A stretch of 8,836 nt of DNA from Candidatus Iainarchaeum sp. (GTDB lineage: Archaea; Iainarchaeota; Iainarchaeia; Iainarchaeales; 0-14-0-20-34-12): positions 1 through 8,836 of the forward strand of contig JAUSKK010000043.1 in assembly GCA_030649345.1 (NCBI GenBank), written 5' to 3'. Below, piece after piece: positions 1,963-8,708 of the stretch. The position numbers and the translations under genes were made by a program. The notes beneath the pieces are model-generated. The model saw only the letters and a list, made by a program, of their open reading frames with translations, was not told the origin of the DNA and did not search any database. How positions within the stretch are numbered: the first letter of the stretch is position 1; the number at the start of each line of letters is the position of its first letter.

Positions 1963-3141
1963 ATGAGTAAACTTCGAAGAGTAGCAATGATTGGAGCAGG
2001 ATTAACTAAATTCGGAGAACATTGGAATTTAAGCTTCCGAGAACTCGGAACAGAAGCTGCCATTAAAGCTGTAGAAAATTCAAATATTGACGGAAAAGAA
2101 ATTGAAGCCATGTACATTGGATGTATGGCTTCTGGAAGATTTGTAGGCCAAGAACATATTGGAGCACTTGTAGCCGATCAACTTGGATTAAATCCAATTC
2201 CAAGCACTCGAGTTGAGGCTGCTTGTGCCAGCGGAGGATTGGCTTTGCGTACAGGATATTTAAGTATTGCCAGCGGAGAACACGACATTGTGGCTGTAGG
2301 CGGAATCGAAAAAATGACTGAAGTTACCACAGCAGAAGCAGGATTTGCCTTAGGTGGAGCCGGAGATCAAGAAACAGAATTATTTCACGGAGCAACTTTT
2401 CCTGCATTGTATGCTTTGTTAGCTAAAGTTCATATGAAACAATTTGGAACCACAGAAGAACAAATGGCTGCAGTGAGTGTCAAAAATCACAAAAATGCAG
2501 TTCACAATCCAATTGCTCAATTTCGAAAAGAAATATCCATAGAACAAGTCATGAAATCAGGATATGTTGCAACGCCTTTGAAATTATTGGATTGTTCTCC
2601 AATTTCAGACGGAGCTGCTGCAGTAATTTTAGCGGAAATTGGATTGGCTAAAAAATTATGCGAAAATCCAGTGGAAATTATTGGAAGCACGCATGCAACA
2701 GATTCTTTGGCTTTAACTGGAAGAAAAAGTTTAACAGAATTAAATGCAACCAAAGTTGCGAGTGCACAATTATTTCATCAAACAGGATTAACACCCAAAG
2801 ATATTGACATGGCTGAAGTACATGATTGTTTTAGTATTGCAGAAATTTTAGCCATAGAAGATATTGGATTTTTCAAAAAAGGACAAGGTGGACCAGCCAC
2901 AGAACAAGGAAAAACTGCCTTAGACGGAGAGATTGCAATTAATCCTTCCGGCGGCTTAAAAGGATGCGGTCATCCAGTGGGAGCTACAGGAGTCAAACAA
3001 GCCGCAGAAATGTTCCAGCAACTCAGAGGAGAAGCTGGAGGCAGGCAAGTCAAAGAAGCAGAAATTGGATTAACCCATAATGTAGGCGGCTCTGGGGCGA
3101 CCTGTGTTATGCATGCTTTTAGATTAATGGAAAATAGGTGA
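1963..3141 (+). CDS. Acetyl-CoA C-acetyltransferase (acetoacetyl-CoA thiolase), archaeal type
   Basis: The ORF is 392 aa. It carries VEAACASGG (acyl-Cys), GHPVGATG (His) and the C-terminal NVGGSGATCVMH. AGGTGA at 1952-1957 lies 5 nt before the ATG. The gene context is HMGCS and DUF35. Confidence 0.93.
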   Translation: MSKLRRVAMIGAGLTKFGEHWNLSFRELGTEAAIKAVENSNIDGKEIEAMYIGCMASGRFVGQEHIGALVADQLGLNPIPSTRVEAACASGGLALRTGYLSIASGEHDIVAVGGIEKMTEVTTAEAGFALGGAGDQETELFHGATFPALYALLAKVHMKQFGTTEEQMAAVSVKNHKNAVHNPIAQFRKEISIEQVMKSGYVATPLKLLDCSPISDGAAAVILAEIGLAKKLCENPVEIIGSTHATDSLALTGRKSLTELNATKVASAQLFHQTGLTPKDIDMAEVHDCFSIAEILAIEDIGFFKKGQGGPATEQGKTALDGEIAINPSGGLKGCGHPVGATGVKQAAEMFQQLRGEAGGRQVKEAEIGLTHNVGGSGATCVMHAFRLMENR

Positions 3142-3145
3142 AATT

Positions 3146-3258
3146 ATGATTTTGAATTTGAAAAATTTAAAAACTTATGAAAATTTTATAGATTTTCATA
3201 ATTATAAAATTCAACAGAATTTTATAACTTTTAAAATTCTTAGGGGGAATTTTGAATG
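3146..3258 (+). repeat. Copy 1 of a ~113-nt duplicated intergenic-like element
   Basis: By hand alignment to 4153-4266, 82 of the first 93 nt are identical. Perfect shared runs are GAAAATTTTATAGATTTTCA, AATTATAAAATTC and GAATTTTATAACTTTTAAAATT. Confidence 0.85.
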
Positions 3259-3259
3259 A
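3146..3259 (+). CDS. Candidate mini-ORF A (37 codons): MILNLKNLKTYENFIDFHNYKIQQNFITFKILRGNFE
   Basis: The ATG lies 4 nt after AGGTGA (3136-3141). The frame stays open for 37 codons in very AT-rich sequence. Its TGA overlaps the DUF35 start (ATGA at 3256-3259). A paralogous copy at 4153-4263 preserves the ATG, the frame and termination at the next start. It was not in the supplied ORF track because it is too short. Confidence 0.4.
   Translation: MILNLKNLKTYENFIDFHNYKIQQNFITFKILRGNFE
3202..3227. promoter_or_regulatory. Perfect palindrome TTATAAAATTC-AACA-GAATTTTATAA (11-bp arms, TATA-box-like arms)
   Basis: The arms are exact reverse complements. The second copy at 4209-4234 has identical arms but the loop is TGTT, the reverse complement of AACA. 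A second small inverted repeat, GAAAAT-TTTATAG-ATTTTC, lies at 3179-3197. Confidence 0.6.
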
Positions 3260-3705
3260 GTGATGGTTTAGCATTAAATTGGAGAAGAATTCCAGAAAGA
3301 TATGCAATGAAAGGAAATCATTGCACAAACTGCAAACAAGATTATTTTCCCAGCCGAATGATTTGCCCAAATTGCAGAAGAAAAGGACACTTGGTTTCCA
3401 AAGACATGCCTAGAATTGGAAAAATTGTCAGTTACACGAAAGTCATGGTCGGGCCTTCTGGTTTCGAAAATGAAGGAAATTATTATTTAGCCTTAATTGA
3501 TTTAGGTTCTGGAGCAAAAGTATTAAGTCAAATTGTAGATAGTGACGAACAAGACATTCATATTGGAGCTAGTGTCAAAAAAATGTTTCGAAAAATTGGA
3601 GAAGTAGAAGAAAAAGGAGCCATTACGTATGGATACAAATTCAAAGTAGTCAAACCTTTAACCGAAGACCAAGTGGAAGCATTGAAAGAAAAAAATAAAA
3701 AATAA
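3256..3705 (+). CDS. DUF35-family Zn-ribbon/OB-fold protein (partner of the archaeal thiolase/HMG-CoA synthase complex)
   Basis: The ORF is 149 aa. It has a CxxC-x10-CxxC zinc ribbon (C23, C26, C37, C40; nt 3322-3375) followed by a beta-rich OB-like segment (IVSYTKVMV, YYLALIDLGSGAKVLSQI, GASVKKMF). It has the conserved neighbourhood with thiolase and HMGCS. Confidence 0.88.
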   Translation: MSDGLALNWRRIPERYAMKGNHCTNCKQDYFPSRMICPNCRRKGHLVSKDMPRIGKIVSYTKVMVGPSGFENEGNYYLALIDLGSGAKVLSQIVDSDEQDIHIGASVKKMFRKIGEVEEKGAITYGYKFKVVKPLTEDQVEALKEKNKK

Positions 3706-3717
3706 GGAAGAAAACAT

Positions 3718-3915
3718 ATGCCAGCAGCTAGATTGCATACACAAAAAATACGGCGCATACGGCCAGCCAAAGAAAAAATATTTTTAGGCTTAAGCCCAAA
3801 AGAACAAGCCGCACGAAGAGCTAAAAGATTAGGCGTCAGACAAGGAAAAGAGTGGGAAGTAAATCGAGAACATAGACTAGCTGTTGTTACCAGAAGAAAC
3901 AGGATGAAAAAGTAA
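3718..3915 (+). CDS. Small Arg/Lys-rich protein (65 aa), family unknown
   Basis: The ATG lies 7 nt after GGAAG (3706-3710) and is tightly packed behind the DUF35 gene. Arg is encoded largely by CGN/AGA codons in an AT-rich context. The N-terminus MPAARLHTQKIRRIRPA aligns without gaps to residues 7-27 of the 265..873 ORF. Confidence 0.5.
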   Translation: MPAARLHTQKIRRIRPAKEKIFLGLSPKEQAARRAKRLGVRQGKEWEVNREHRLAVVTRRNRMKK

Positions 3916-4143
3916 TGCATAGTTTTTGAAAAAAACATAAAAAAAATAGGTGAATGCATAGAACGACGAAGAATTATTTTAAAGCAAGTAAAATTAGATA
4001 TTGCTGGAGCTCAAAGAGCCATTGCCAGAGAATTGGCTAGAAGAAGAGTACAAGAAAGACCTTTACCCATAGGATATACGCGTGTAGGAAAACCAGTATA
4101 TCCTGAACCAGAAAAAGGAAAAAAATTGGATAAAAAAGTTTGA
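3916..4143 (+). other. 75-codon stop-to-stop open frame lacking a canonical start; encodes an Arg-rich peptide (...IERRRIILKQVKLDIAGAQRAIARELARRRVQERPLPIGYTRVGKPVYPEPEKGKKLDKKV)
   Basis: It is in the same frame as 3718..3915 and separated from it only by the TAA at 3913-3915. AGGTGA at 3948-3953 suggests independent initiation, but the nearby ATG (3954) is in another frame that stops after 28 codons. The only in-frame candidates near the SD are ATA at 3958 or ATT at 3973. Confidence 0.3.
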
Positions 4144-4152
4144 GGAAAAAAC

Positions 4153-4263
4153 ATGATTTTAAAATTAAAAATTTTAAAAGCTTTTGAAAATTTTATAGAT
4201 TTTCACAATTATAAAATTCTGTTGAATTTTATAACTTTTAAAATTTCGGAGGCGAAATTTTAA
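4153..4263 (+). CDS. Candidate mini-ORF B (36 codons): MILKLKILKAFENFIDFHNYKILLNFITFKISEAKF
   Basis: The ATG lies 6 nt after GAGGA (4142-4146). The frame is open for 36 codons, and its TAA (4261-4263) directly abuts the kinase ATG at 4264. It shares 26 of 36 residues with mini-ORF A. Three of the nucleotide differences are silent (Leu3, Leu5, His18). Confidence 0.4.
   Translation: MILKLKILKAFENFIDFHNYKILLNFITFKISEAKF
4209..4234. promoter_or_regulatory. Perfect palindrome TTATAAAATTC-TGTT-GAATTTTATAA (loop flipped relative to 3202-3227)
   Basis: The arms are exact reverse complements and identical to copy 1. The loop is the reverse complement of the copy 1 loop. Confidence 0.6.
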
Positions 4264-5259
4264 ATGAAAAGTGTAAAAGCCAGTGCACCCGGAAGTTTAT
4301 TTTTTGCAGGAGAACATGCCGTAGTTTATAATTTACCAGCAATTGTAACTGCAGTAGGAAAACGAACCTATGTAACTGCAACTCAAAGATTAGATAATAA
4401 AATAATTATAATCTCAGACTCATTTGAAAACGCAGAAGCACAAATAGTTGGACAATCATTAATTAATCGAAAATTTGAAAAAATAGCTTTAGAACCTTTA
4501 TTGGATTTATGTGAAAAATGTGTCCAAGAATTTAAATTAACTCAAGGATTTGAATTAAACATTGAATCTGAAATTATGCCGGAATCTGGAATGAGTAGTT
4601 CTACGGCTGTTCTTTGTGCAATTTTGAAAGCATTGGATGGATTGCATAATTGGAATATTAGAGAAGAAAACTATTTTGATTTTTTATTGCCTTTTCAAGT
4701 AAAAATTCACGGCGGAAAAGCTTCAGGAGCAGAATTGGCCAGCAGTTCTATTGGAGGATTTAATTTAGTTCAAAAAATACAAATTGGAAATACCACAAAA
4801 TTAAACAGAACAAATTTGGGAAAAAAAGAATTTTGTATTGTTATTGGAAACACAAAAATTAGAAGTGCAACCGCATTGGCAGTACAGCATGTAGCTAACT
4901 TAAAACAAAGAAAACCAAAAAGTGTAGAAGAAGCTTTTGGAAAAATTGAAAAAATTGTAAAAGAAATGGAAAAAGCCATTGCAAAAGGAAATGAAATAAA
5001 AGTTGGAGAATTAATGAATGAAAACCAAAAATGGTTAACTGTACTTGGAGTCAGCCATCCTAAATTAGATGAATGCATTCAAACAGCTTTAGCTTACGGT
5101 GCTTTAGGAGCAAAGTTAAGTGGCGGCGGATGGGGTGGATGTATGTTTGCTTTAGTAAGAAAACAAGACCAAAACAAAATTGCCAATGCATTAAAAGAAT
5201 TAAATTGTGAAAGTATTGTAACTGAAATTGGAGTAGAAGGAGTTAGAATTGAAAAATAG
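4264..5259 (+). CDS. mvk: Mevalonate kinase family GHMP kinase (divergent)
   Basis: The ORF is 331 aa. It has APGSLFFAGEHAVVYNLPAIVTAV (the MVK-type N-terminal motif), the GHMP motif II PESGMSSSTAV, and motif III KLSGGGWGGCMFAL. GGAGG at 4248-4252 lies upstream. It sits within a mevalonate-pathway cluster. Confidence 0.85.
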   Translation: MKSVKASAPGSLFFAGEHAVVYNLPAIVTAVGKRTYVTATQRLDNKIIIISDSFENAEAQIVGQSLINRKFEKIALEPLLDLCEKCVQEFKLTQGFELNIESEIMPESGMSSSTAVLCAILKALDGLHNWNIREENYFDFLLPFQVKIHGGKASGAELASSSIGGFNLVQKIQIGNTTKLNRTNLGKKEFCIVIGNTKIRSATALAVQHVANLKQRKPKSVEEAFGKIEKIVKEMEKAIAKGNEIKVGELMNENQKWLTVLGVSHPKLDECIQTALAYGALGAKLSGGGWGGCMFALVRKQDQNKIANALKELNCESIVTEIGVEGVRIEK

Positions 5260-5266
5260 ATGAATT

Positions 5267-6547
5267 ATGCCAAAACCAAGAATTCCCAGCAGAGTAAAGA
5301 CAGTGCGAAAAGCCATAGCTCGTGCAATTCACGAACGGCCAGAATTGGTTCACCCAACACTACGTGAACCACAGCCAGCGTATGGATTACGGCATCGATT
5401 GGATAAAGGACATCAAAAAGCAAAAAAGGCATTCATTGATTTTAAAAAATTACGCACGCAAATTTTGCGATTAAAACCCATTCAAACATTATTGAAAAAT
5501 GATCTGAATGTACGAAAACGATTGAATCGAATTTTAAGAGAAGCTGTAAGTGAAACAGGATTTAGAGCAACCGAAGAATTATGGGGCGTGCGAACAGCTG
5601 CAGCCATCAAAGGCGGAACAAGATCTATTTCAGTTAGAGCTAAAGGAATGCCAACTCAAATGAATGAACACGCAGGAAAAAAAGTAGCTCAAGAACTTCG
5701 GTCTGTACGGAATCCCAATATTGTAGATATTGGAACTGGCGGAGGAGAAACAATTTTAGAATTAGCTAAAGCATTGTCTCCAGAACAGCGAAGAAATGCG
5801 CGCATTACTTTGGTAGACGTAATGACATCTGATTTAACAAGAACGAAATTGGAATTATCACGATTGGGAATTCCGTTTGGCAATGTCCGAATACTTCCAG
5901 TCTCGTTTGTACAATTGGCTGAAAGTATTGGAGCTAAAGCACGCAGTCCATTTACTGGAAAAACTACTAGAGACTCTGGAACAGAACGAGAATTCAAAAC
6001 AATGATGGGTTCAGCAGACGCTGTAGTCAGCGGGGCTACGTTTAACAACTTTAATAATTTACAACCTATTGCCAAAGCAGTGAAAAGTTTACTGAAACCA
6101 GGCGGAACAATGGCAGTATGGGACTGGGCTGGAGTAGATACGTATGCTAAAAAAGTTTCTGTAGTGAATGCTCGTGGAGAAAAAAAAGTTCGCACAACCC
6201 ATGGAACACAGCCAACGTATCGAGATTCGCTTAAATCTTTTTTAGATTTTTGGTTAAAATCATGGGAATTTCCAGAGCAAGTACGAACTCAACTTGAGCA
6301 TGAAATCAATACAGCAAAACGATTTGATTTTGAAGAATTTTTACACAGACATGTTAATTTACTGCCGGAAAACCAGCGAGGAAATACAAAAGTAGCTCGA
6401 ATGAATAGAGCGTATAGATTACCCGAAGATATTGCACAGGATTTCCAAAGAACTGGATTTAGAATTACACGAACAGAATATCCGTTTGCCAGCACTGGCG
6501 TGAATGTTGGGAATTTGACTTATTTAATGTTAGCTAAGAAAAAGTGA
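5267..6547 (+). CDS. Class I SAM-dependent methyltransferase with a ~140-aa basic N-terminal extension
   Basis: The ORF is 426 aa. Motif I is VDIGTGGGE (nt 5723-5749), an acidic residue ends the next strand (ITLVDV), and LKPGGTMAVWDW matches a later Rossmann-fold methyltransferase motif. Residues 1-140 are Arg/Lys-rich (MPKPRIPSRVKTVRKAIARAIHERP...), and I cannot assign a domain to them. Confidence 0.78.
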   Translation: MPKPRIPSRVKTVRKAIARAIHERPELVHPTLREPQPAYGLRHRLDKGHQKAKKAFIDFKKLRTQILRLKPIQTLLKNDLNVRKRLNRILREAVSETGFRATEELWGVRTAAAIKGGTRSISVRAKGMPTQMNEHAGKKVAQELRSVRNPNIVDIGTGGGETILELAKALSPEQRRNARITLVDVMTSDLTRTKLELSRLGIPFGNVRILPVSFVQLAESIGAKARSPFTGKTTRDSGTEREFKTMMGSADAVVSGATFNNFNNLQPIAKAVKSLLKPGGTMAVWDWAGVDTYAKKVSVVNARGEKKVRTTHGTQPTYRDSLKSFLDFWLKSWEFPEQVRTQLEHEINTAKRFDFEEFLHRHVNLLPENQRGNTKVARMNRAYRLPEDIAQDFQRTGFRITRTEYPFASTGVNVGNLTYLMLAKKK

Positions 6548-6551
6548 TTCT

Positions 6552-7361
6552 GTGAAATTAAATGAAGTGGATTTTAAAAAAATTTGTTTTATTTTTGATT
6601 TAGAAGGCGTACTGATTCAGCATATTTCCAGACAAGCAAAAATTATAGAAACTGCTTTTGAAGAAACAGGGATAAAATTAAGGTTCAAGATAAAAGAGAT
6701 TTATCATTTGCGAACCTATCCTGAAATTCATGGAAGTAAAAAATTTTTCCCTGCAATATATGCACTTAACAAATCTGACATTAAATTGAAAGAATGCAAA
6801 GAAAATATTTATGTAATTGAAAAAATAATAAACGAAGTCAAAAAATTGGCTCCAATGGAGTTACGCCAGGCAGGAAATGCTGAAATCCAATATATGGAAA
6901 TGAGAAAAAAACCTGAACTATTTCAAGAACTGGAAACCGTTATTCCGGGTGCGCAAAAAACTATTCGATTTTTGAAAAAAAATGGAATCAAAATTGCTGT
7001 TGCAACCCGAGCACACAAAATACAAAATGAAGCATTGCTGAAACGATTTGGATTAAAGGAATACATAGATTACAGTGTTACAAAAGAAGATTTTGGAATG
7101 GACAATGAATTCAAGCAGACAGGAGAACCTACATTAAAAATTGCAGAACAATTAAAGATTCAACCCAAACACTGCATTTTTGTAGAAGATTCAGTGGCTG
7201 GAATTAAAGGAGCTAAATTAGCTGGAGCCAAAACAATTGGAGTTTTAACCGGAACCAGCTCAAAAACGCAATTCGAAATCTATGGAAAGCCTGATTTAGT
7301 GCTAAAAAGCGTAGCTGAAATTAAAGAAAAATTTAAAACAATTGTAAAATTAATAAAATGA
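6552..7361 (+). CDS. HAD-superfamily hydrolase (subfamily IA-like, beta-phosphoglucomutase/phosphatase type) with an atypical motif I
   Basis: The ORF is 269 aa with a GTG start 4 nt after AAGTGA. Motif I is FIFDLEGVL (D16, E18; nt 6597-6605), motif II is IAVATRA, a Lys lies in KQTGEP, and motif IV is FVEDSVAGIKGAKLAGA. The insert between motifs I and II is long and consistent with a cap domain. Confidence 0.82.
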   Translation: MKLNEVDFKKICFIFDLEGVLIQHISRQAKIIETAFEETGIKLRFKIKEIYHLRTYPEIHGSKKFFPAIYALNKSDIKLKECKENIYVIEKIINEVKKLAPMELRQAGNAEIQYMEMRKKPELFQELETVIPGAQKTIRFLKKNGIKIAVATRAHKIQNEALLKRFGLKEYIDYSVTKEDFGMDNEFKQTGEPTLKIAEQLKIQPKHCIFVEDSVAGIKGAKLAGAKTIGVLTGTSSKTQFEIYGKPDLVLKSVAEIKEKFKTIVKLIK

Positions 7362-7385
7362 TTTAACCCTTAAATGGAGTTACGT

Positions 7386-7499
7386 ATGGAAAAGAAAGAT
7401 AGGCTAAAAATTATTGCATTCGATTTTGACGGAGGTCTTATTAATTATTTTGGGTATTTTATTGATATTAACTTTATTAAAAATTTTAGCGTAAATTGA
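7386..7499 (+). pseudogene. 37-codon ORF resembling the N-terminus of a HAD hydrolase (possible truncated gene remnant)
   Basis: The ORF reads MEKKDRLKIIAFDFDGGLINYFGYFIDINFIKNFSVN and contains the canonical hhhhDxDG motif I (IIAFDFDG). GGAG at 7376-7379 lies 6 nt upstream of the ATG. The frame stops at 7497-7499 and nothing downstream continues the fold. Confidence 0.3.
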
Positions 7500-7526
7500 A
7501 TAATATTTATTGGAAACGGTGATACC

Positions 7527-8708
7527 ATGACAACAGCAACCAAAATTGAACAAGGATTTGAAGACATTGCACTTCAAATGAAAAAAGACAATGACGAAAT
7601 TGTAAAAGAAGTCAAAAAAAATTATACTATTCAAGATTATCCGGCAATTGAAAAAAAGAATAAATTGGACGGAATAGCTGTAGCGCAAGCCTATCCAATT
7701 CAAGGAATTTTAAAATATCATGGAATGAGTGACTGGAATTACCGGACAGCCTATTTGCCTAGTATTAGTGTCAACAACGATGCAGCTCGAACAGTTACGT
7801 ACGTAAAATTTGATTCCAATTACACTCAAGACAAAGGAGTCATTAATGACAAAGTTGTAAGCGGAAGAGATTTGGAACGAGTAGTCCAAACACTGGATAT
7901 GGTTCGAAAATTAACTGGAGCTACAACCAAAGCATTGGTAGTCAGCAAAAATATTGTACGCGCAACCAAAACAGGAAAAGGATTGGGGACCAGTGCTTCT
8001 GGATCTGCAGCCATTGGAACAGCAGCTGTAGCTGCAGCTATGGGAGATTCTTATTATCAAAATAAAAGATTTTTGAGCTGTATTGGAAGATTTTTAGCAG
8101 GCTCAGGATGCAGAAGTATTGCAGGCGGAATTTCATTATGGTTAAGTTATCCAGGAATTGCTCATGAAGACAGTTATGCTGTACGTTTAGATGATCAAGA
8201 ACAACTCAAAGACGTAAGCTTAATTACAGTTCCAGTGGACAGCCGAATTGGATTGAAAACAGAAACAGCCCACAAGGATGCCCCGCATTCTCCTTTATTC
8301 AAAAAATGGATGGAAATGCGAAAGCCTTACATTTTAGAATGCATGCAAGCAGTCCAAAAAGGAGACTGGCAAACTGTTGCAAGATTAGGAGAATTGGATA
8401 CAATTTTATTGCATGGAGTAACCATGAGCGGAACTCTTGAATCCAAAATTATTGCATGGGAACCAGAAACCATTCAATTAATGCGAGCCAGCAATGAACT
8501 CAAAGATTCTGGAATTCCATGCTATTATAGTATTGACACAGGACCAACGCCAGTATTCATTACACCCAAAAAATACGAAACAGAAGTTGTAGACAAAATT
8601 GCAAAACTAAAATTTGAATACGTAGTTGGAAAAATAGCTGGACCTGCAGAATTATTGAACGAAGAAAAAGCTGAAGAAATACTCCAAGTTAGTAAATACG
8701 ATAACTAA
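7527..8708 (+). CDS. Mevalonate diphosphate / phosphomevalonate decarboxylase family protein (GHMP fold); substrate not assignable from sequence
   Basis: The ORF is 393 aa and GGTGAT at 7518-7523 lies 3 nt upstream. It carries ILKYHGMSD (cf. IKYWGKRD), ISVNN, the GHMP motif GLGTSASGSAAIG, GSGCRSIAGG (conserved Arg), and YSIDTGPT with the catalytic-position Asp (D337, nt 8535-8537). Confidence 0.87.
   Translation: MTTATKIEQGFEDIALQMKKDNDEIVKEVKKNYTIQDYPAIEKKNKLDGIAVAQAYPIQGILKYHGMSDWNYRTAYLPSISVNNDAARTVTYVKFDSNYTQDKGVINDKVVSGRDLERVVQTLDMVRKLTGATTKALVVSKNIVRATKTGKGLGTSASGSAAIGTAAVAAAMGDSYYQNKRFLSCIGRFLAGSGCRSIAGGISLWLSYPGIAHEDSYAVRLDDQEQLKDVSLITVPVDSRIGLKTETAHKDAPHSPLFKKWMEMRKPYILECMQAVQKGDWQTVARLGELDTILLHGVTMSGTLESKIIAWEPETIQLMRASNELKDSGIPCYYSIDTGPTPVFITPKKYETEVVDKIAKLKFEYVVGKIAGPAELLNEEKAEEILQVSKYDN

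Follow-up and report, generated by a model that had tools for sequence, protein, structure and literature searches.

Why should the spacer between two genes of an archaeal mevalonate cluster recur in front of a third gene, and what is the short open reading frame (ORF) that each copy carries? The question is raised by a stretch of 8,836 bp (the window), which is the whole of contig JAUSKK010000043.1 of a metagenome-assembled genome (MAG) labeled Candidatus Diapherotrites (DPANN). Its plus strand encodes, in order, HMG-CoA synthase (874–1938), a thiolase (1963–3141), a DUF35/OB-fold protein (3256–3705; NCBI MDO8428696.1), a basic ORF of 65 amino acids (3718–3915) and a GHMP kinase identified as mevalonate kinase (4264–5259; MDO8428698.1), followed by genes for a methyltransferase, a HAD hydrolase, and an MVD-like decarboxylase. 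An initial annotation had proposed that the repeated spacer holds a conserved mini-ORF of 37 or 36 codons, either a translated leader or coupling ORF or a genuine small protein. The analysis described here suggests that the repeats are probably copies of a noncoding, multi-palindromic insertion element of 106/107 nt and 83% A+T, similar to a MITE (a transposable element of the miniature inverted-repeat type), which is flanked by ATGA and sits on the start codons of two genes of the cluster. The mini-ORF would then be a by-product of insertion, and may serve as a relay ORF for translational coupling.

The repeated spacer

The spacer between the thiolase and DUF35 genes is repeated before the mevalonate kinase gene, with 81% identity over 121 nt in an ungapped comparison of 3136–3256 with 4143–4263. 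When one internal gap is allowed, 3146–3259 (copy A) and 4153–4267 (copy B) are identical at 98 of 115 positions (85%), which bears out the duplication reported in the initial annotation. A recount also upheld the 82 identities given there for the first 93 nt; the perfect runs shared by the copies measure 21, 13, and 22 nt, and only the first had been miscounted, as 20. The two copies lie about 1 kb apart in the same orientation at non-homologous sites; the inserts are 85% identical, and the flanks of the two sites are unrelated. A search of the window with an nhmmer profile returned two full-length copies only (E values of 1e-26 and 1e-27), although this profile was built from the two copies themselves and matches its own inputs by construction.

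Misassembly is argued against by an independent Logan assembly of run SRR13727527, made with a different assembler, in which copy B is reproduced at 100% and copy A is reproduced at 100% between the two contigs L001 and L002. The end of L002 and the start of L001 have exactly 30 nt in common (3163–3192, inside copy A), a length that is presumably k-1. As copies A and B share runs of no more than 22 nt, this overlap implies that something else in the sample shares the 30-mer with copy A. A strain variant or a third copy of the element are candidates, and the overlap is a weak hint only, further weakened by another Logan contig break inside the kinase gene, which shows that breaks occur without repeats too. 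The Logan contigs of this run did not extend the sequence beyond the window.

Orthologous junctions in related genomes

Loci of relatives were taken from homologs of the DUF35 protein and the kinase with 55–86% protein identity. The element was absent from the orthologous junctions in every relative examined (L082, L011, L085, L086, and L010). For copy B, the locus L082 encodes a mevalonate kinase 78% identical to that of the window and lacks the copy, while the flanks are otherwise conserved. L082 reads GAGGAAAAAAATGAAGACTGTAAAAGCC, and the window reads GAGGAAAAAACATGA, 107 nt, and ATGAAAAGTGTAAAAGCC. Seen from upstream, a 58-amino acid ORF of L082 is followed by ...AAAATTTGAGGAAAAAAATGAAGACTGTAAAAGCC, the ATG of which is the kinase start, and at this place the window has ...AAAGTTTGAGGAAAAAACATGA, 107 nt, and ATGAAAAGTGTAAAAGCC; the ATG within the L082 junction TTTGAGGAAAAAAATGAAGACTG is likewise the start of the mevalonate kinase. 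When the window is aligned with L082, GAGGAAAA and AAATGAA stand on either side of a single clean gap, about 111 nt long. These comparisons show the state before insertion: a small upstream ORF, 6–8 nt, and the mevalonate kinase ATG.

For copy A, the thiolase stop codon (TGA) in L011, L085, and L086 is followed by 4 nt and then by the DUF35 ATG. The junction reads GGGTGA-TCAC-ATG in L011 and GGGTGA-AAAT-ATG in L085, and the window reads AGGTGA-AATT-ATG at 3136–3148. The left junction of copy A, AGGTGAAATTATG, agrees with the L085 sequence GGGTGAAAATATG at 11 of 13 positions. Excising the 110 nt between the two ATGA sequences of copy A gives AGGTGAAATTATGAGTGATGG and brings back the 4-nt spacing between the thiolase and DUF35 genes, directly before the conserved DUF35 N-terminus (MSDG..LNWRR), with which the N-terminus encoded in the window (MSDGLALNWRR) aligns. 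The ancestral arrangement indicated for copy A is thus the thiolase stop, 4 nt, and the DUF35 ATG. Since the relatives have these signals directly at the starts of the DUF35 and kinase genes, the Shine–Dalgarno (SD) sequence and ATG of each mini-ORF are captured gene signals: those of copy A originally belonged to DUF35, and those of copy B to mevalonate kinase.

The precision of the junctions also bears on a different explanation, in which the 110/111 nt are a bulge–helix–bulge (BHB) intron that the tRNA-splicing endonuclease removes from the mRNA, restoring the order of SD, ATG, and gene. Archaea splice a few mRNAs at BHB motifs, e.g., that of cbf5 in Crenarchaeota, and an insert lying exactly at a duplicated ATGA would allow seamless removal. 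However, an explicit search at both junctions for the motif (helix, 3-nt bulge, 4-bp helix, 3-nt bulge, helix), in every register that would restore the ATG, found central 4-bp helices only, with an exon helix of 0–1 bp and an intron helix of at most 2 bp. Moreover, a spliced intron would have no use for an SD of its own, yet the element carries one that is correctly spaced from the second ATG. This explanation is regarded as extremely improbable.

Structure of the insertion and its junctions

The features of the two copies, all on the plus strand, are as follows.

3136–3141, plus strand: AGGTGA, ancestral SD of DUF35; it overlaps the thiolase stop TGA (3139–3141), matches the junctions of L085 and L011, and now serves mini-ORF A.
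3146–3149, plus strand: left ATGA of copy A, ancestral DUF35 start and start of mini-ORF A; 4 nt past the thiolase stop, as in L011, L085, and L086.
3150–3255, plus strand: body of copy A, 106 nt, 83% A+T, with hairpins H1 (3150–3172), H2 (3175–3201), H3 (3202–3227; loop AACA at 3213–3216), and H4 (3230–3256).
3242–3247, plus strand: G-run AGGGGG, element-borne SD-like motif in the loop and 3′ arm of H4, 8 nt before the current DUF35 ATG.
3253–3259, plus strand: terminus TGA-ATG-A of copy A; TGA at 3253–3255 in the DUF35 frame, ATG at 3256 as the current start, TGA at 3257–3259 as the stop of mini-ORF A, and the right ATGA at 3256–3259.
3146–3259, plus strand: mini-ORF A, 37 codons, MILNLKNLKTYENFIDFHNYKIQQNFITFKILRGNFE; no Pfam family.
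4142–4146, plus strand: GAGGA, ancestral SD of mevalonate kinase; it overlaps the stop TGA (4141–4143) of the upstream small ORF and now serves mini-ORF B.
4153–4156, plus strand: left ATGA of copy B, ancestral mevalonate kinase start and start of mini-ORF B; place of the gap in the L082 alignment.
4157–4263, plus strand: body of copy B, 107 nt, with hairpins H1 (4157–4179), H2 (4185–4205), H3 (4209–4234; loop TGTT at 4220–4223), and H4 (4237–4264); absent from L082.
4248–4252, plus strand: GGAGG, element-borne SD in the loop of H4, 11 nt ahead of the ATG now used by mevalonate kinase.
4261–4267, plus strand: terminus TAA-ATG-A of copy B; TAA at 4261–4263 as the stop of mini-ORF B, in the kinase frame, ATG at 4264 as the kinase start, TGA at 4265–4267 closing the second frame, and the right ATGA at 4264–4267.
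4153–4263, plus strand: mini-ORF B, 36 codons, MILKLKILKAFENFIDFHNYKILLNFITFKISEAKF; between the DUF35 and kinase genes, unannotated.

The ATG behind an SD-like motif in each copy, the second SD-like motif inside the 3′ end, the 37- and 36-codon frames, and their stop/start juxtapositions are all as first described. Neither mini-ORF is annotated as a protein, since the NCBI accessions of DUF35 and the kinase are separated by a single number, enough for one protein. A direct repeat of ATGA brackets both copies (3146–3149 and 3256–3259; 4153–4156 and 4264–4267), the two members being 110 and 111 nt apart. ATGA could be a specific target, an end carried by the element, or a restored start codon that was selected, instead of a target-site duplication. 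The motifs AGGGGG and GGAGG are the sole G-rich patch in the element. The T(G/A)A-ATG-A terminus places one stop codon directly before the regenerated start and a second-frame stop over it, so that two of three frames are closed; because of this terminus, both mini-ORFs end at the next start codon despite a 1-nt difference in their tails. In both copies, a stop precedes or overlaps the regenerated ATG, and the N-termini of the host proteins match those of the relatives.

These junctions show insertion at a start codon, with the native SD and ATG left at the left end and reading into the insert, which created the mini-ORFs of 37 and 36 codons. At the right end, the G-run in the last hairpin and the T(G/A)A-ATG-A sequence rebuild an SD and a start codon for the displaced gene. 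The element would have been copied by a transposition-like, duplicative mechanism. Ribosomes starting at the ancestral ATG might pass through the weak A-U hairpins, stop at the ATGA of copy A or the TAA-ATG of copy B, and begin anew. Such a relay would keep the coupling from thiolase to DUF35, and from the small ORF to the kinase, that the compact ancestral junctions imply. Taken by itself, the coupling step is a serious possibility that stops somewhat short of being probable. Direct initiation at the element's own SD would be a further route, and may suffice because the new SD is predicted to be largely unpaired.

The fallback offered in the initial annotation was a duplicated promoter module with an incidental open frame. 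In its specific form, the element would be a portable archaeal promoter with BRE/TATA-like boxes (GAAAATTTTATAG at about 3178–3191 and AGAATTTTATAAC at about 3215–3228), from which transcripts would start about 25 nt downstream, so that DUF35 and mevalonate kinase would each have a separate mRNA with a short leader or none. TTTATA-type motifs do follow purine-rich stretches and are identical in both copies. The archaeal TATA box is centered near −26, which would place a start from the second box about 6–7 nt before each ATG, and outward promoters are known in small repeats such as the Correia elements. However, TATA-like strings are expected by chance at 83% A+T, and the G-rich SD that both copies have 8–11 nt ahead of the ATG points to an mRNA with a leader. 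In relatives, both genes are expressed behind spacers of 4–21 nt without a dedicated promoter, and thus no promoter is required at either gene. Furthermore, a promoter has no need for 107 nt of conserved palindromes or for ATGA flanks, and it leaves the empty sites unexplained. Promoter activity is possible as a side effect of the insertion; as an explanation of the repeats, it is unlikely.

Hairpins and the pattern of divergence

Compared to dinucleotide shuffles, both copies fold more stably than expected. The predicted RNA of copy A folds at −26.1 kcal/mol (shuffle mean −12.9; z = −5.45) and that of copy B at −26.3 kcal/mol (z = −4.73), each into four tandem hairpins, and the reverse strand folds well too (z of −4.6 and −6.3). 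The single hairpins are weak A-U stems, of −2.5 to −7.2 kcal/mol in copy A and −2.4 to −9.7 kcal/mol in copy B. One half of the element is an inverted repeat of the other, with 70–74% complementarity; the arms are 3154–3190 and 3203–3239 in copy A (37 nt at 70%) and 23 nt at 74% in copy B. The best alignments of the 5′ end with the reverse-complemented 3′ end begin 11–17 nt inside the ends, and the very ends, where a MITE is expected to have inverted repeats of at least 10–15 bp, have only TTAAAATT-type matches.

Differences between the copies are concentrated in the loops. Only 11 of 90 paired columns differ (12%), as against 10 of 23 unpaired columns in loops and linkers (43%; Fisher p = 0.0016). 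H1 contains a compensatory change from T-A to A-T, which alters two residues of the peptide (N4K and N7I). The loop of H3 is inverted, from AACA to its reverse complement TGTT, which is a hairpin-type event and turns QQ into LL. H4 forms a 12-bp stem in the own fold of each copy despite the sequence differences and the indel there. Between the copies, palindromes rather than codons are conserved.

These observations also bear on the reading that the repeats are structured intercistronic RNA or protein-binding palindromes (REP-, ERIC-, or operator-like) that affect mRNA stability or processing or bind a dimeric regulator. In addition to the excess folding of both strands, the lower divergence of the stems, the compensatory pair, and the maintained H4 stem, this reading could draw on the same orientation of both copies within one operon. 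However, stems of −2.4 to −9.7 kcal/mol are weak, and no Rfam family was matched. The element is absent from relatives, which speaks against an ancestral regulatory feature. Conservation of the palindromes is equally expected from the recognition structures of a mobile element or from homogenization within the element, and two sequences cannot separate constraint on DNA from constraint on RNA. A regulatory RNA or operator is therefore considered quite unlikely, more so than a promoter, although such a function may be present as a secondary role.

Two further ideas about the folds were rejected. Obligatory coupling through sequestration of the new SD by H4 is unsupported: when folded in context, AGGGGG has a mean pairing probability of 0.41 and GGAGG one of 0.20, so that the SD is predicted to lie mostly exposed in the loop. 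Avoidance of runs of five or more T residues, as a sign of selection against archaeal terminators, was not significant; 35–42% of shuffles also lack such runs.

Coding potential of the mini-ORFs

The open frame had been thought notable for such AT-rich DNA. The frame set by the ATG is indeed open, but it stays open in about 5% of dinucleotide-preserving shuffles, and any plus-strand frame does so in about 15%; the copies are not independent trials for this chance, and the other five frames contain 1–8 stops each. This makes the open frame less remarkable than it seemed. The first 31 codons contain seven point changes and the loop inversion. Three of the seven changes are synonymous, compared to 16% expected (p = 0.09); they are the silent differences at Leu3, Leu5, and His18 reported before and found again here. 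The compensatory stem pair and the loop inversion together alter four residues. The peptides share 26 invariant columns, the number given originally, and their last 5–6 residues are unrelated.

Among 5.8 billion called proteins, none shared three 5-residue words with a 43-amino acid query, an in-frame extension of the 37-residue peptide of mini-ORF A. The small ORFs of the window that were tested had no match in Pfam or NCBIfam. We conclude from these comparisons that the mini-ORF peptide is probably not a conserved product, with no detectable selection at the peptide level. The open frame is at best weakly selected, as could come about if the insertions that are tolerated are those that let ribosomes reach the new start.

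A leader peptide, coupling ORF, or small protein selected for control of DUF35 and mevalonate kinase has some points in its favor. The SD and ATG are intact, the frame is open, and stop and start are juxtaposed in both copies despite the indel in the tail. Three of seven point changes are synonymous, and both copies precede genes of one pathway. Other observations speak against it. First, the SD and ATG were inherited from the displaced genes and did not evolve for the mini-ORF. Second, the element is absent at all orthologous junctions examined. Third, the synonymous excess is not significant, a frame is open by chance at a rate of about 5%, and the non-synonymous changes track hairpin pairing and the loop inversion. 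Fourth, the C-terminal 5–6 residues are unrelated, and no homologous called protein and no family match was found. Translation and coupling remain plausible parts of the earlier proposal, while a dedicated leader or small subunit is disfavored by the empty sites and the lack of peptide constraint. A selected function of this kind is judged about as unlikely as the regulatory RNA.

Search for further copies

An nhmmer profile of the two copies found no further copy in any of the 86 loci collected, and Rfam 15 covariance models gave no match to the element at E ≤ 1, the only match in the window being a chance miRNA elsewhere. In the scan of genome contigs, the H3 palindrome TTATAAAATTCNNNNGAATTTTATAA matched seven bacterial contigs; similarity stops at the edge of the palindrome, and these matches are therefore attributed to chance. 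The contigs L003 and L004 are from an uncultured Campylobacter MAG and hold several tandem or clustered palindromes of the TTATAAAATTC type, apparently an unrelated bacterial repeat family.

The best metagenome matches (67 nt at 79%) were rejected as relatives of the element. They are the 3′ ends of an ORF in A+T-rich, marine-looking contigs that encode KTYENFIDF, a motif of the mini-ORF, by coincidence. In L015 (6518–6600), L066 (11008–11090), L068, and L078, a long ORF, which we take to be glyS, ends in ...LELLNF(L/F)CKT(Y/F)ENFIDFQLIKD and shares the element's 20-mer. We judge this likeness to be a chance convergence of A+T-rich codons.

Comparison with known elements and systems

The element resembles a MITE in several respects. 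It is about 107 nt long (MITEs range from about 50 to 800 bp), A+T-rich, and without a transposase gene. It is strongly self-complementary, with inverted subterminal arms and short direct repeats at both ends. It is present or absent between related genomes and is found at gene boundaries. MITEs that carry ORFs, and that are fused to or abut ORFs of the host, are known (PMC10969869), and DPANN genomes dense in MITEs have been reported (PMC11602168).

A number of observations weigh against an insertion element of this kind. Only two copies were seen, both inside one 8.8-kb contig. An exact-core scan of one genome per GTDB species, a collection from which the source MAG is absent, found no relative of the element. 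In JGI metagenomes, the exact 20-mer GAAAATTTTATAGATTTTCA gave 69 matches, none of which extends over the element, and two exact cores had no relevant match among IMG/VR viral contigs. Neither a transposase nor a partner insertion sequence (IS) lies within the window, nor is such a partner known. The inverted repeats have mismatches and begin some way inside the ends, instead of being strictly terminal as in a MITE, and one pair of H2 is changed on both sides with loss of pairing in copy B (A-U to U·C). The same non-palindromic ATGA flanks both sites and may not be a true target-site duplication. The empty site of copy A rests on more distant relatives, as no relative of more than 70% identity has DNA across this junction; the closest DUF35 relative, P0014 (86% identity), was not part of the junction comparison. 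As to the relay, weak hairpins and a new SD that is predicted to be exposed already may make coupling unnecessary.

Rickettsia palindromic elements (RPEs) and intragenic ERIC and BOX sequences are palindromic repeats of 100–150 bp that keep a frame open and are readable with host ORFs, which they need not destroy (PMC10969869). Copy B similarly spans exactly 111 nt (37 codons) and shares the frame of mevalonate kinase. However, the element is not fused into a protein; a stop codon (TAA or TGA) comes between it and the regenerated start, and the host protein is unchanged. It also has no sequence similarity to these repeats, and its host is an archaeon.

PATEs (IS200/IS605-derived) and REP/REPIN elements are mobilized by Y1 HUH transposases. 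The element shares with them hairpins near both ends, a constant tetranucleotide at the left end, an orientation that is the same at the two sites, and two inverted halves that contain palindromes. Unlike them, it has no GTAG-type REP head, its first hairpin lies too close to ATGA for a guide sequence to fit in, and no TnpA or RAYT gene is in view.

With regard to translation, termination–reinitiation can couple genes at ATGA or TGATG overlaps, and such stop/start junctions show strict coupling in 13 of 14 gene pairs tested in Haloferax volcanii and E. coli (PMC6728339). Mini-ORF A overlaps DUF35 by ATGA, mini-ORF B ends with TAA-ATG, and an SD lies inside the 3′ end of each upstream frame. 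In contrast to those pairs, the upstream cistron here is a frame made by insertion and not a gene, and coupling would be a prediction from the sequence. Similar to attenuators and leader peptides, a short, translated-looking frame precedes a biosynthetic gene and overlaps RNA hairpins. The differences are that no terminator/antiterminator pairing is evident, the mini-ORF contains no regulatory codon runs and is not conserved in orthologous operons, and the signals at which it starts once belonged to the downstream gene.

Other features of the mevalonate cluster

The 65-amino acid basic ORF (3718–3915) and the frame at 3916–4143 are a single reading frame, split by one TAA at 3913–3915, and mini-ORF B and the kinase continue the reading frame of 3718–4143. 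Within it, the frame at 3958–4140 has a homolog in L082, namely the 58-amino acid ORF in front of the kinase (52% identity; E of 4e-13). It has no in-frame ATG, GTG, or TTG before TTG 4033, and its orthologous start codon is ATA (3958). An SD and ATG (AGGTGA-ATG, 3948–3956) lie near 3958 in another frame. Loss of the start codon, a 1-nt indel, and an unusual start are all possibilities, and the frame is apparently unannotated at NCBI. L082 is without the 65-amino acid ORF; its DUF35 stop is followed by 6 nt and then by the 58-amino acid ORF.

A 9-nt direct repeat, AATGCATAG, at 3914–3922 and 3953–3961 brackets an A-rich stretch of 39 nt. This stretch holds AAAATAGGTGAA (3943–3954), a 12-mer identical to the end of the thiolase gene (3131–3142), and may be a second small insertion or duplication carrying an SD.

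Downstream of the kinase, L082 has 66 nt (1290–1355) and then the MVD-like gene; in the window, a methyltransferase gene, a HAD hydrolase gene, and a 165-nt spacer lie between the two (5267–7526). A 41-amino acid ORF at 7374–7499 contains IAFDFDG, a sequence similar to HAD motif I, and looks like a fragment of a HAD gene. In the GC-richer locus L010, with a DUF35 protein 69% identical to that of the window, very basic, low-complexity ORFs of 118 amino acids (8078–8434) and 109 amino acids (9653–9982) are wedged between the genes for HMG-CoA synthase, thiolase, and DUF35. The lineage thus seems to have small basic ORFs within its mevalonate cluster repeatedly.

Biological implications

Under the favored explanation of a MITE-like insertion, the tempting false lead of a mevalonate-pathway leader peptide is replaced by an insertion history that the operon has tolerated. 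The locus would be a natural example of a small repeat that turns the ribosome-binding site of a gene into the start of an upstream ORF and rebuilds a new site, and would show that selfish DNA can be accommodated inside essential operons of gene-dense DPANN genomes. For annotation, such mini-ORFs should not be called genes, and such repeats break short-read assemblies.

A bolder and rather improbable extension is that the element represents an undescribed family of translationally transparent mobile elements suited to ultra-compact DPANN genomes, which would target ATGA, keep a frame open from the captured start, carry an SD in the last loop, and end in T(G/A)A-ATG-A, which would make ribosomes in two of the three frames halt precisely at a regenerated start codon. 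If this were true, the ATGA target would be both a start codon followed by A and the overlap of stop and start between adjacent genes. Such an element could enter operons that have almost no intergenic DNA, leaving essential genes unsilenced and relay mini-ORFs behind. If further copies share the ATGA flanks and the stop–start terminus, they would define a distinct, start-codon-compatible class of archaeal MITE.

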